A stretch of DNA of 64,000 bases from Escherichia coli (GTDB taxonomy: Bacteria; Pseudomonadota; Gammaproteobacteria; Enterobacterales; Enterobacteriaceae). Under the pieces are notes generated by a model. It had not been told where the DNA came from. It searched no databases and saw nothing but the letters and a program-made list of their open reading frames with translations. Below, one piece after another: positions 46,547 through 58,924 of this stretch. The stretch lies in assembly GCF_003018235.1 (NCBI RefSeq), contig NZ_CP027438.1. The stretch is one strand, 5' to 3'. The number at the start of each line of letters is the position of its first letter. The stretch's first letter is position 1. The translations under genes and the position numbers were made by a program.

Positions 46547-47400
46547 TCATGACTTCCACTTTCTGAACTGTTCGGCAATCACCCATAACGCCTTGTTGAT
46601 TCTTATATCACCATCAATACCTGTAATGGCTCTTGTCCTGGTATTTTTCCCGGAGGCACTTCGCCCCGATAATCCACCTTTTATCATATTCTCCTGAACC
46701 CGCTGCCAGGTTGTCCAGAGATCGTTCTGTTTATCTTCCCGACGACGGGGAGTAATTATCTGTTCAGGCGTCACTGGCGTTTTATTTTCATCTTCATACC
46801 TGACCATCAGTGCAGCTCTGCCAAATAAATGTTGCTCGTCACTGTTAAGATGAATTTCTTTCATCGCCTCCATATTATCAGTGACCTTATCAAAGACACC
46901 GAGCACTTCATACGCTCCCTCGATAACCTGCCCGACAATATCACCTTAATGTGGAACGCGGATTTCGCCAAAATTATTTCCGCACACCAGGCCATTTGTG
47001 CAGACAAAACGAAAAATTCCGGGGATCATCTGATAACTGGATGAACCATCATGTGAATTAAGCAGGATAATTTCAGGAACTTCCTGCCCGTTAATATGCC
47101 CTTCCCTGCGAAGACGTAACATATGTTTACTGTATTCGCGACGTCCCAAATCACGAACCCGACTCTGACAGGCAAAGAATGGCTGGAAACCTTCATCACG
47201 TAACTTATTGATGATATTGATTGTTGGAATATACGTATAACGTTCACTCCTGGACTCATGTTTATCACCGGAAAATACCAAGGCACGAACTGCATTAATT
47301 CATCATCCGTTAAAGGACGTTCACGGCGGATGGAATTATACCGACCAAAACGGGAAGCTAATCGCATAACAGCTACTCCTTTATGAAAGAATAAATTTAA
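46547..47400 (-). pseudogene. Conserved leading-region protein (DUF932-like) split across three frames
   Basis: Consecutive minus-strand ORFs 47026-47478, 46946-47281 and 46547-46906 each cover part of one protein-length span (motif LNSHDGSSSYQ). Confidence 0.3.
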
Positions 47401-47484
47401 TAAAAATTTTTTCCGCTTAATATCATCCCCCCGATCTCCATTAACAAGATTGCAACAATCAGGAGGGATATTCATCACATCCGG

Positions 47485-47772
47485 TCAGCAGATCGCCCGG
47501 ATATCGAGGCCGGCACGCTTAATCTGACGCAGGAACTGTTTGAAGTGATCGGCTTCCGCAATGTTGATATGGCGGAACTGCTTATCCACACCCTGACTGA
47601 GCGCGTAGCTATAACTGAAGGCCATCTTTTCCGGGTGGCTTTTGCGATATTTTTTCAGCTCAGTCAGGCTGCTGAATTCCAGGACGTCCCTCTCTTCCCC
47701 GGTGTTTTTTTTCTTCCCGGCAACAAGAAGCGTGTACGACGCGGTGTTAACGTGGATATTTCGGGTACTCAT
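47485..47772 (-). CDS. Hypothetical leading-region protein (95 aa)
   Basis: ORF only; no recognisable family. Confidence 0.3.
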   Translation of the reverse strand: MSTRNIHVNTASYTLLVAGKKKNTGEERDVLEFSSLTELKKYRKSHPEKMAFSYSYALSQGVDKQFRHINIAEADHFKQFLRQIKRAGLDIRAIC

Positions 47773-48561
47773 CCTGCTTTCTCCTCTCTCTGGTTTTCAG
47801 CCCCCATCATCTGTTGAGTTTCGGGAGCCGCGGTTTTGACGTTTTGCGGGGACCTGCCTTTTGTTCCCTCCGGTATTCACCATCACCTTTTTGAGAACCT
47901 TCGCCGCAAGGGGCATCACTGCCACGGCCGGAAACGACTGTCCGGGGGCAGACCGCAAAAGTTTTTGCCTGCTTTTGGGCAAAAAGTTTTGCGGGATGTA
48001 CATTTCACCCCTGGACTGGCGGAGACGGTTGTGGCTGTATCAGCCCCCGGCGACAGGGGCTTAAACAGGTGAATGACACCGGACACAACAACGGACAGGG
48101 ACCCGCCGCAACGACGTGAAGCGCGGTTTGCGAAACGGCGTTGCCCCTTACATCCCGGCGGCCTTTTGCCGGGATGCCAGGAGCGCAGGCCACGGCGCGA
48201 CAGAGGCGGCGCGACCGGAACGGTCGCTGCAAGCCAGGGTTTCGCGTCAGGGATGGAAGCCCGCCAGGGCGGAGACAGCTTCGCTGGCTCCGTTCACGAC
48301 AGCCCGCCCCGCCAGGGGGACGCCCGGAAAAGCCATAAACAGGAGAGGAACGGAAAGAAGAGGAAGAGGAAAAAGAAGAAGAACAATAACAAGCACGGTA
48401 ACCACAGAAAAATAACATCAGAAAAAAACATTCCGGGCACATCACAAACAGGAAGGGTAACGGGCGACGCGTCAGCGTGGCCCGCTTCCCTTCCGGCAGG
48501 CGTCAGCCTGCCAGGGGTTTTCGCGCGGGCTGACAGGCGGCCTCCACCGCCTGCCCCTGTA

Positions 48562-48753
48562 TCACCTGTTTCTGCTGCCCTGAAGGATGTAGTGACCACC
48601 GAGGAAAACCGCCTGCTGATTCGCCACAAAATCGCAGATTTCATCAACAATCTGTGCGGTGGTGAGCGGTTTCTGTCCCATTTCACGACGCCACGCATTA
48701 ATCACGGCTTTGTAATTGCGCAGAATTTCGCGGGTTTCCGTGCTGATATTCAT
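48562..48753 (-). CDS. Hypothetical small protein (63 aa), translationally coupled to the upstream ORF
   Basis: ATGA overlap with ORF 48750-49172. Confidence 0.25.
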   Translation of the reverse strand: MNISTETREILRNYKAVINAWRREMGQKPLTTAQIVDEICDFVANQQAVFLGGHYILQGSRNR

Positions 48754-49172
48754 GACATGTGCTCCCCGTCCAGCGCCTGTAACACAACGTTTATTGCTTC
48801 GCGTTCCTCCCTGACGAATGCGTCACCGTCGCCCCCGTTCTCACTCCCGACGGCATACAGGCGCTTCATTTCACTGCCTGCCAGCGCCATCACTTTTTCC
48901 AGCATCACCGCCGGGACTGTCACCTGACGGCTGGCGCGCTTTTCCTCCATCAGTTCACGAACAACGTCGTGAACAATGCTGACATCCGCACCATGCTCAA
49001 AGGCATCGTCCAGCCGCTGCATGACGGCTTCCAGCTCATCGTCTGTCAGACTCCAGTCCTGGGCTATGTGACGCACATCCCCACGTGTCAGCACCACGGC
49101 AAAAACGCATTCACTGTCCGGCACGTCTGTATCCAGCACTTCGCGGATAATTTCTTTAACAGTACAGTACAT
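48750..49172 (-). CDS. Hypothetical acidic protein (140 aa)
   Basis: ORF with balanced composition; no recognisable family. Confidence 0.3.
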   Translation of the reverse strand: MYCTVKEIIREVLDTDVPDSECVFAVVLTRGDVRHIAQDWSLTDDELEAVMQRLDDAFEHGADVSIVHDVVRELMEEKRASRQVTVPAVMLEKVMALAGSEMKRLYAVGSENGGDGDAFVREEREAINVVLQALDGEHMS

Positions 49173-49218
49173 GTTCTCGTCTCCTTTACAGGGGCGGCAT
49201 TGCCGCCCCGTCCGTTAA

Positions 49219-56901: not shown

Positions 56902-57120
56902 TCACCAGTCCCTGTTCTCATCGGCAAAAGAGCCGTTCATTTCAATAAACCTGGCGACCTCTGCCATCCCTTCCTGATTTTCAGCCTGCCAGCGTTCAGC
57001 GCGCAGTCGCCGGGCTTCGTTCTGCATGGTCGTACTGACCAGACCGGAGATATTCACGTCATACGCCTTGAGCAGCTGATAGCTGTCGCTGTCAACTGTC
57101 ACTGTAATACGCTGCTTCAT
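56902..57120 (-). CDS. ccdA: CcdA antitoxin
   Basis: 72 aa [45 protein letters not shown]... Confidence 0.9.
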
Positions 57121-57296
57121 AGCACACCTCTTTCTGACATACTTCTGGTATGTATATCAGTATATATTCTTATGTCGCAAAAATCAGCGCGTTAATACAC
57201 ATACTGTTATCTGGCTTTTAGTAAGCCTTATTTATTTTACCTTGCATTATGTTAACCAATAAAAATCAAAATCAGACTTATAAAAACAAAGCGTAA

Positions 57297-57956
57297 TTAT
57301 CGAAGGACCATTTCCGGTAGATCCGATTTTTCTGTTATTAACGTGTTTCCGGAAGGGTACCACGCTGAGGAAATAATCATATCGCTGTTTTCCGCCCCTG
57401 CGCGGCGCATCACAGGTAAGGGAAATAACACAACATATAGTGTCATGAGCAGATGAATGCAGCACGACATGTTGTACTTACAGGAGGTGGCGTAGTGTGG
57501 GGGGAGAGAAAGATCCGTGACTGTAAATGAATAGCGTCCCTGCATATTAATATGCCCGCACTGTAATAGTGACAGTTTCTCAACGTCTGAATCCAGGACC
57601 GGGTACCCCTCACGCCTGAGCTGCTGAATTGCTGCATCCATGTAAATAGTGTTCCACAGAACAATAATATTGAGCACCAGACCTAACGCTCCAAGTTGAT
57701 CTTCCTGGCCTTCACGGTAAGCCTGTCTCAGTTCTCCCCGCCTACCATGAAAGACGTTTCTGGCCACTGCATGGCGCCCCTCTCCACGGTTGAGTTGTTG
57801 CAACGTTCTCCGTCGTTTGTTTTCATCATCGAGATAAGTCAGCATATGGATAGTTTTATCGGCACGTCCTATTTCGGCTATAGCAGCATGAAGAGTTTCA
57901 GAAAATGACAGAGCGCGAGCAAGTACCTTTATTGAAATCGCCAGAATGATGTTCAT
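57297..57956 (-). pseudogene. tnpA: Tn3-family transposase, C-terminal fragment
   Basis: Motifs RHAVARNVFHGRRGELRQAYREGQEDQLGALGLVLN...WNTIYM and GHINMQGRYSF; N-terminal about 800 aa absent. Confidence 0.6.
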
Positions 57957-57982
57957 CGATAGGAATTAAAAAACCGGAAAGA

Positions 57983-58378
57983 TTAAAAAAACACCAAAAA
58001 ATGGGACCAGTACTGGCACGGAAACGTGAACACAATATGCTGCCACGGGCAGTCGGGGACCAGACTCAGCAGATACTGTATCCACTGTGCGCCGGCCTTC
58101 ACTCCGCAGTGCGGACAGGAACGGCTTTTACACCGGAAGCAGACCTTCTTTGTGTGGCAACAGCCCGGTGACGAACAGCACCATTGCGTGTAGCCCATCA
58201 GCGTGGTCCCACAGACCATGATTTTTGTCACTGACTCAATCACCTCCGGACGCACAGATCCTTCCGGCTGCTTCTCCAGCCAGTTAAGCCAGCGGTTACC
58301 CTGTTGAAAGATGTCTGCGAAACGGGGAAGCGTCAGATGGGGGGAGTAACGCCACCCGGCCAGTGAACTGTGCCGCAT
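57983..58378 (-). pseudogene. IS91-family transposase, N-terminal zinc-finger fragment
   Basis: Cys-rich motif CHTKKVCFRCKSRSCPHCG; ORF ends after 131 aa. Confidence 0.45.
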
Positions 58379-58630
58379 TCCGGGCAGTACATACCACCGG
58401 CGCTGATACCGGCAAGAATGGTTGCAAACTCTCGCTCCGTACAGCGGGCTATTTCCGGATACCCTTCGTCATTGACACGAACAAACCAGAAGACCAGATT
58501 TTTGTTTCCTGCATCCAGAAAGAACGGAATACCCAGGTCAGCGCAACACTCAACGGCATCGTCAAAATTATCAAAGCGCAAAACTTCAGCGTCTTCTTCG
58601 TCAAAAAAATCATCCGGATGAAGATAGGCA

Positions 58631-58924
58631 TTGCTTGGTCCGGTTGTGATTTGTTTTGATTTGGCCGTTGATCAGATCGCACAATCCGGACTAAGTTCCC
58701 TCAAAGTGATCTACTATTCCGCGCATCTATTTAGAGTGAATACAGCAGGCCTTATTCGCTCAATGTCCCGTAAAGGGTGTTTGTCCGATAATGCTGCGTA
58801 CGAAAGCTATTTCGGCAAACTCAAAATGAAATGCATTATGGGCGTAAATGGTCGGGCATTACGCCAGAAAAGTTCATGCTACATGCGGACACTTATATCT
58901 GATGGTATAAAGAGCGGCGTATAA
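58631..58924 (+). pseudogene. IS3-family transposase C-terminal fragment
   Basis: Motif SRKGCLSDNAAYESYFGKLK (compare RKGNCxDNAxxESFF). Confidence 0.45.

Follow-up and report, generated by a model that had tools for sequence, protein, structure and literature searches.

Gene remnants along the presumptive leading region and maintenance backbone of an F-family Escherichia coli plasmid

The window analysed here is a 64,000-nucleotide stretch of Escherichia coli DNA (contig NZ_CP027438.1) that comprises most of an F-family plasmid. Our subject is its segment 46547-58924, in which a preliminary description, made from the sequence alone, had reported a high density of gene remnants. The nearest public record, NZ_CP076711.1 (~57 kb matched at 99.4-99.9% identity), is the 69,043-bp plasmid unnamed2 of E. 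coli O158:H23 strain CFIAFB20140388, which is typed in PLSDB as IncFIA/IncFIC and as non-mobilizable, with no relaxase (MOB-suite). The segment is colinear with the oriT-proximal leading region and maintenance block of the F-like plasmids AP024127 and CP196413. The gene order is traM, oriT, an SLT gene, DUF932, a 95-amino-acid (aa) open reading frame (ORF), a repeated element, a 63-aa ORF, DUF1380, antirestriction and DUF1281 genes and, further on, stbB/parM, a 124-aa ORF with parA, repE, resD and ccdBA. From traM to ccdBA the nucleotide identity to these two plasmids is 91-98%. Compared with them, however, the window is short of 2.5 kb of leading-region genes, its resD is gutted and its DUF932 gene is dead; it also lacks ssb, psiB and psiA and differs slightly in length at one point of the incC iteron region. 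Backbone homology to the syntenic AP024127 ends at 57516 and is followed by 1.5 kb of transposon debris, beyond which lies a gene for an AraC-type regulator (59234-60043, minus strand). We are confident that 46547-58924 comprises the leading region of an F-family plasmid and the backbone for its vertical maintenance, with nested transposon debris at the end (Table 1). The plasmid also bears RepFII/FIC, and its type IVb pilus operon is bfp-like.

Table 1. Features discussed in the text, in positions of the 64,000-nucleotide window (IS, insertion sequence).
Feature	Position	Strand	State and remarks
tra deletion junction	39847-41728	.	traX 3' part, ISEc31, traB stub
traM	44944-45327	-	intact, 127 aa, as homologues; retained relaxosome/oriT module, just outside 46547-58924
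oriT	45328-45680	.	nic region TTTGCGTAGTGTGTGGTGCTTTTGGTGGTGAGAACCACC; repeated motifs upstream
SLT-domain transglycosylase (gene X/orf169 type)	45648-46250	+	intact
DUF932 pseudogene	46547-47367	-	aligned to intact 273-codon copy in CP196413; Pfam
95-aa leading-region ORF	47485-47772	-	intact; 95-aa homologues annotated in relatives; no Pfam match
Repeated leading-region element with 68-aa ORF	47772-48346	-	~570 bp; twice in CP076712.1
63-aa ORF, DUF1380 gene, antirestriction gene (Pfam Antirestrict)	48562-49644	-	all intact
Deletion scar, 2,496 bp relative to AP024127	50060-50115	-	junction 50060-50064
DUF1281 gene	50112-51014	-	intact
ParM (324 aa) and StbB/ParR-like (130 aa), type II partition locus	51695-53065	-	intact
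ParA (210 aa) and 124-aa partner, type Ib partition locus	53304-54310	-	intact
RepFIA replicon	54969-56012	-	repE 55066-55821, 251 aa
resD (tyrosine recombinase) remnant	56339-56594	-	compared with intact 268-aa AP024127 gene
ccdB (101 aa) and ccdA (72 aa)	56595-57120	-	both open, expected length
Tn3-family tnpA fragment	57513-57893	-	profile positions 830-954 of 954 (last 125)
IS91-family internal fragment	57995-58622	-	tnpA residues 2-102 of 356 (zinc-binding domain) and 5'-truncated ORF121-like ORF
IS3-family transposase 3' fragment	58727-58983	+	profile positions 295-369 of 369; frameshifted, two frames
IS4-family transposase 3' fragment	61536-62194	+	frameshifted; IS4 match 61910-62149; outside 46547-58924

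The only backbone-gene remnants in the segment are DUF932 and resD; the others are three transposase fragments crowded within 1.5 kb where the backbone ends. Relative to the intact 273-codon copy, the DUF932 gene has exactly two inactivating lesions: a 1-bp deletion at ~47280 (CCTT[C]GG, not a homopolymer) puts the gene out of frame beyond codon 29, and codon 141 (46946-46948) has turned from AAA into the stop TAA. The gene is indeed broken into three ORF pieces, as had been described, but these occupy two frames and not three (starts 47478, 47281 and 46906, or 0, 1 and 1 modulo 3), with DUF932 positions 1-107 matched by Pfam on the second piece and 127-227 on the third. The codon-141 stop is also present in the copy on CP076712.1, a conjugative plasmid co-resident with NZ_CP076711.1 in the same strain and the top match in complete E. 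coli genomes. DUF932 would therefore be dead even if the 1-bp deletion were false, since this stop recurs in a third sequence. The 1-bp deletion itself is absent from CP076712.1, the closest copy in complete E. coli genomes (the next-best listed matches are at 99.3%), and an exact-pattern scan of species-representative genomes returned 0 matches; the gene is not comparable with NZ_CP076711.1, which misses 45293-48527.

On F-like plasmids the DUF932 stops differ, being K141* in the window and CP076712, Q68* in AP024127 and Q225* in CP148300, and fully conjugative plasmids are among those on which the gene has been independently inactivated. It is intact on CP196413 and on pMAR2. These sequences may reflect recurrent loss of an uncharacterised leading-region gene, in a sample that is small and biased to close relatives; a literature search for DUF932 function returned nothing informative.

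The second backbone remnant, resD, was correctly recognised in the preliminary description. Three deletions, of 17, ~399 and ~174 bp, were mapped against the intact gene, the two large ones being flanked by the 7-bp direct repeats GTCCCGG and GTCCTGC. What is kept amounts to residues 1-33, 36-65 and ~199-222 of 268 (~30% of the ORF), and the internal piece gives a weak Phage_integrase match. The stop codon has gone, and with it the catalytic Tyr, so that the full-length recombinase with catalytic Tyr that characterises the ResD/rfsF multimer-resolution system is not present. The remnant is identical in NZ_CP076711.1. A larger loss is recorded at the scar in the leading region. The 2,496-bp segment missing there is present in AP024127, CP076712.1 and other relatives, and its deletion, at a junction with ~4 bp of microhomology (CATC), removed a 256-aa ORF, a DUF1380 gene, a 73-aa ORF, a DNA methylase gene and most of a 103-aa ORF, of which 18 codons are left at the scar.

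The three transposase fragments likewise proved to be what had been proposed, namely internal or terminal pieces of genes. The Tn3-family piece shares 94% protein identity with Tn3-family transposase sequence carried by plasmids of Salmonella and E. coli. A full Tn3 transposon would comprise a tnpA of ~950-1000 aa, inverted repeats and a resolution module; of tnpA only the end is present, and there can be no Tn3 terminal repeat at 57516 because backbone homology abuts the fragment there. Homology to the IS91-like element of CP075654 spans 57995-58622 only, well short of an IS91 with its HUH transposase of ~356-426 aa and element ends. An '82-aa hypothetical' annotated at 58333-58581 is part of this remnant; it corresponds to the upstream ORF, which measures 121 aa in the CP075654 element and is truncated at its 5' end here. 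The IS3-family piece, which extends ~60 bp beyond 58924, retains just the last ~75 profile positions of what in a full IS3 would be orfA/orfB with a DDE domain. When 57100-59240 was scanned in six frames against NCBIfam, only Tn3, IS91 and IS3 were matched, and the rest of the backbone in 46547-58924 is accounted for by other genes. The IS4-family fragment that the preliminary description had also placed in the segment is a real remnant, but it is located further along the plasmid. A junction between the IS91 and IS3 fragments shared with enterotoxigenic E. coli STa plasmids was considered and dropped, the two matched pieces being ~1.4 kb further apart there.

These lesions recur in the nearest record. 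Six substitutions and one intergenic indel (53175) are all that separate the window from NZ_CP076711.1 between 48528 and 58990, and 57120-59240 is 100.0% identical. The two share the resD, Tn3, IS91, IS3 and IS4 remnants, the leading-region deletion and a deletion in the tra region at ISEc31, and on NZ_CP076711.1 the Prokaryotic Genome Annotation Pipeline (PGAP) likewise calls the integrase, Tn3, IS91-zinc-domain and IS3 remnants pseudogenes. The lesions from 48528 onward are not assembly errors. Nor can base-calling error yield them, because they are truncations and multi-base deletions (17 to 2,496 bp). Comparison of each remnant with intact homologues, which had been proposed as a check, has thus been carried through, with the lesions mapped base by base. 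Resequencing, proposed as the means of refutation, cannot touch most lesions in the segment and is relevant to two genes outside it, traJ and a bfpI-like gene. The two records do differ in that NZ_CP076711.1 is without 45293-48527 of the window (the N-terminus of traM, oriT, the SLT gene, DUF932, the 95-aa ORF and the repeat element), a gap that lies exactly at the coordinate origin of the record (69043/1); traM is annotated there as 'missing N-terminus' because the record breaks at that point. As the gap coincides with a repeat shared with the co-resident CP076712.1, it is probably a collapsed repeat in the assembly and not a real deletion.

The claim that replication, partition and addiction systems are intact held for all three. 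RepE matches both Rep_3 domains, WH1 and WH2, over their full length, as in RepFIA replicons, and carries the same protein accession as in AP024127; four iterons lie downstream of repE (54969-55064) and four upstream (55920-56012). ParA and its partner, ParM and StbB, and CcdA and CcdB are likewise full length, the last pair making up a complete addiction module. Both ParM domains and Plasmid_stab_B were matched full length, and StbB has the same protein accession as in CP196413. The type Ib locus is flanked by arrays of TTGCAGCAA/TTGCTGCAA repeats at 53199-53297 and 54324-54603. Elsewhere in the window FII repA with CopA, hok/sok and relE/yefM are also intact. Maintenance is nevertheless not wholly intact, since ResD, a multimer-resolution recombinase and hence a stability function, has been destroyed. 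The intactness of the maintenance genes, like the anatomy of the segment, the types of lesion and their occurrence in other records, was observed directly.

Two features of this block deserve mention in their own right. The partition loci stand in tandem on one strand (51695-54603), whereas the equivalent loci of pMAR2 are divergent; in the window, repeat arrays border parA on either side and also occur between the two loci. At the 54969-55064 iteron array there is an alignment length difference of ~72 bp relative to AP024127, which suggests that iteron copy number may vary between relatives.

The loss of transfer functions, also part of the preliminary description, was clear. Everything from traB to traX, the relaxase and coupling protein genes included, has been deleted beside an intact ISEc31 (40370-41583), leaving a 45-codon traB stub (41591-41728) and the 3' part of traX (residues 76-246, in two frames). 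With queries from CP076712.1, tblastn found no match to TraI or TraD in the window or in the full NZ_CP076711.1, and TraC, TraG, TraN, TraU, TraH and TraV were also without a match in either. In place of a complete set of type IV secretion system (T4SS) and F-pilus genes, the whole pilus genes left are traA, traL, traE and traK. These are open, as are traM, traY and finO, and FinP and the traJ 5' untranslated region have also been kept. Since the relaxase, coupling protein and T4SS genes are deleted, the plasmid is not self-transmissible.

The origin of transfer, in contrast to the transfer genes, appears usable. A presumed nic sequence of the F/R100 type lies at 45637-45677, and the motif GCACCGCTAGCAGCGCCCCT is repeated in oriT and marks candidate TraM-binding sites. 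Over the oriT core (45200-45700) the identity is 98.8-100% to CP076712.1 but only 71-83% to four other F-like plasmids; 45450-45950 is 100% identical to CP076712.1, a plasmid with a full tra operon. This similarity runs over 45100-48346, taking in oriT, the SLT gene, DUF932 with its K141* stop and the repeated element, at ~99-100% identity with a dip to 92-96% at 46200-46700, whereas the flanking traM/traJ are only 76-92% identical. The pattern suggests that the plasmids may have recombined and share an oriT allele over 45100-48346. With oriT, traM, traY and FinP kept and an oriT core near-identical to that of a conjugative plasmid, mobilisation in trans by a co-resident F-like plasmid is plausible, as judged from the sequence. 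There is a precedent in the tra-less enteropathogenic E. coli (EPEC) plasmid pB171, which was mobilised by a conjugative plasmid (PMC5684527). Mobilisable plasmids that bear oriT and no relaxase similarly combine oriT and relaxosome accessory genes with the absence of relaxase and T4SS; unlike the small dedicated plasmids of that kind, however, the plasmid described here is large and derives by deletion from a conjugative F-like plasmid, and its mobilisation is predicted only.

We have also considered, as a tentative and rather improbable extension, that a CP076712-type conjugative plasmid is the helper and the pilus plasmid its passenger, with recombination keeping the two compatible, the decay being the signature of that specific dependency. 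If so, the passenger would have gained the oriT allele of its helper and could then have shed its relaxase and T4SS, its establishment genes and ResD. The tract around oriT shared with a conjugative plasmid would offer a small, concrete example of how a virulence plasmid might stay mobile after tra loss.

To what extent is the remnant load unusual? On NZ_CP076711.1 PGAP flags 29 of 89 features as pseudogenes (33%), 17 of the 29 being transposase fragments. The figure for CP076712.1, which comes from the same assembly and so has the same sequencing quality, is 13 of 96 (13.5%; Fisher p = 0.0026), and that for pMAR2, the Sanger-sequenced, fully conjugative prototype EPEC plasmid with a complete tra region, is 28 of 123 (23%; Fisher p = 0.12 against the 29 of 89). 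The fragments on pMAR2 are of IS481, IS1, IS256, IS4, IS91, IS3 and IS21, together with a recombinase with an internal stop. The high density that had been reported thus stands in comparison with the co-resident conjugative plasmid, but not with pMAR2, and 46547-58924, with 5 remnants in 12.4 kb, does not exceed the density seen over the remainder of the plasmid. The load is higher than an ordinary conjugative F-like plasmid carries and lies within the range documented for this class of virulence plasmid. Indeed, because pMAR2 carries a similar load with a complete tra region, remnant density is not tied to the loss of transfer.

The EPEC plasmids pMAR2/pMAR7 and pB171 are virulence plasmids of the same F family and likewise carry a type IVb pilus operon, a stb-par-rsv-ccd region and many IS fragments, and pB171 further resembles the present plasmid in having no tra genes and in its mobilisation by a helper plasmid. 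The resemblance is incomplete, however. In pMAR2, resD and DUF932 are intact, whereas here both are dead, and the present plasmid has no matches to perB, perC or RepFIB, its replicon being FIA. The pilus operon (1-9700, plus strand) has the bfp gene order, with proteins 22-61% identical to Bfp of E2348/69 pMAR2 (BfpD 60%, BfpE 61%, BfpF 59%, BfpB 47% and BfpC 33%, and BfpA, on NZ_CP076711.1, 50%). Two AraC-type regulators, at 10951-11542 (minus strand) and at the 59234-60043 locus mentioned above, resemble PerA over the C-terminal domain only (36-37%). The pilus locus is a diverged bfp-like system, and the plasmid does not belong to the canonical EPEC adherence factor plasmids, which are marked by a bfp operon, perABC and FIIA and FIB replicons.

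Taken together, these results make it very probable that the remnants are real and are the outcome of a handful of discrete past events, typical of EPEC-type/F-family virulence plasmids. The order of events given below is inferred, as are a relaxation of selection on the establishment genes and the capacity for mobilisation in trans. In DUF932 the nonsense codon would have arisen first and the 1-bp deletion later. Deletions at short direct repeats would have gutted resD, in three steps, and in one step taken 2.5 kb of leading-region genes; Tn3-, IS91- and IS3-family elements would have inserted and been truncated in succession beyond the backbone edge at 57516; and, outside the segment, a deletion adjacent to ISEc31 would have taken out traB to traX. 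The resulting plasmid would have kept vertical inheritance, save for ResD-type multimer resolution, while its horizontal movement would probably depend on a helper. Several points weigh against this account. The corroborating record is a single near-identical relative, possibly from the same isolate, which does not order or date the events. The DUF932 1-bp deletion, seen only in the window, appears to be the sole lesion in the segment lacking corroboration. The density comparison consists of PGAP flags from three plasmids and is not a population distribution. Finally, over the whole comparison with NZ_CP076711.1 there are 127 indels, 110 of them extra bases in the window and mostly in A/T homopolymers, which means that at least one of the two assemblies has homopolymer errors.

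This last point bears directly on whether the remnants might be sequencing or assembly artefacts of genes that are intact in the real plasmid. Both traJ (44102-44740; sites 44242 and 44615) and the bfpI-like gene (6839-7431; sites 7063 and 7286) are broken in the window solely by homopolymer length and are open in NZ_CP076711.1; the reverse holds for FinO, TraA and TraK, which are open in the window and 'frameshifted' in that record. The traJ and bfpI-like frameshifts, which had been counted as decay, therefore call for read-level confirmation before they are given that name, and the DUF932 1-bp deletion, peculiar to the window, could be read in the same sense. For the segment itself, however, we consider an artefact most improbable. 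Its lesions are deletions of 17 to 2,496 bp, truncations and a substitution, none of which hangs on a homopolymer call; every one from 48528 onward is identical in the second record, so that the resD, Tn3, IS91 and IS3 junctions are effectively confirmed, and the DUF932 stop is found in a third sequence. It seems to us scarcely credible, either, that some of the fragments have been kept as functional entities (for instance a ResD N-terminal peptide, an IS91 zinc-finger ORF or the 219-aa ORF running on from the Tn3 fragment). Reading frames of 131 and 219 aa are open across the IS91 and Tn3 fragments, respectively, and the block is 100% conserved in two records; but these records are ~99.9% identical here, which makes the conservation uninformative, the fragments are without catalytic domains, and the extension of the ORF past the Tn3 homology has no family match.

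The preliminary description had gone further, and saw the plasmid as apparently undergoing reductive decay. Such decay would be an ongoing, directional loss under relaxed selection after self-transfer was lost, with vertical modules preserved. We regard this as unlikely, although as a reading it is a reasonable one. The genes that are lost or dead do fit it: the T4SS and relaxase, leading-region genes (DUF932 and the DNA methylase) and the colicin, with ssb and psiB absent as well. Leading-region genes act during entry into the recipient (PMC11541004). The higher pseudogene fraction than on the co-resident conjugative plasmid also points in this direction. However, the comparable load on the conjugative pMAR2 does not, and 17 of the 29 pseudogenes are transposase fragments, which represent insertion debris rather than decayed plasmid functions. 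In addition, a gene for vertical stability, resD, was also destroyed, whereas antirestriction, DUF1380, DUF1281, oriT, traM, traY, traA, traL, traE, traK and finO were all kept, and DUF932 has been independently inactivated on plasmids with complete tra (CP076712 and AP024127). The losses are therefore real, but they appear as discrete events identical in a second record and do not demonstrate a continuing directional process.

The account of discrete past events describes a phenomenon that is already known, the same scars being annotated on a near-identical public record and on classic EPEC virulence plasmids, and it matters little beyond correct annotation. For annotators, the resD, DUF932, Tn3, IS91 and IS3 features are genuine pseudogenes, and the plasmid is one that is unable to self-transfer yet keeps a predicted usable oriT.

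Among the remaining genes of the leading region, the repeated element merits comment. One of its copies in CP076712.1 sits directly upstream of the real ssb, and from its position and the description of an Frpo/ssi single-strand promoter region (PMC11541004) the copy in the window is probably a region of this type. A putative ssb remnant at 47797-48003 was rejected: tblastn with a real plasmid SSB gave no match, and the ORF belongs to the repeated element. The equivalent ORF in AP024127 carries the PGAP label 'single-stranded DNA-binding protein, frameshifted'. No similarity to ssb, psiB or umuC was found anywhere in the window.

Beside stbB, a 59-aa ORF on the plus strand (51432-51611), labelled 'impC protein' on NZ_CP076711.1, stands alone. 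There is no impA/impB or umuDC similarity in the window, and the corresponding position of pMAR2 holds a umuC fragment; the ORF is possibly all that is left of a mutagenesis operon. Finally, a segment of at least 24 kb containing the pilus operon and IS100 is inverted between the window (1-22852) and NZ_CP076711.1 (16513-45931). The inversion would measure ~29 kb if it extended to the flanking IS3-family copies, and it appears to lie between inverted copies of this family (window 63454-64000, corresponding to 43634-44177 of the record).

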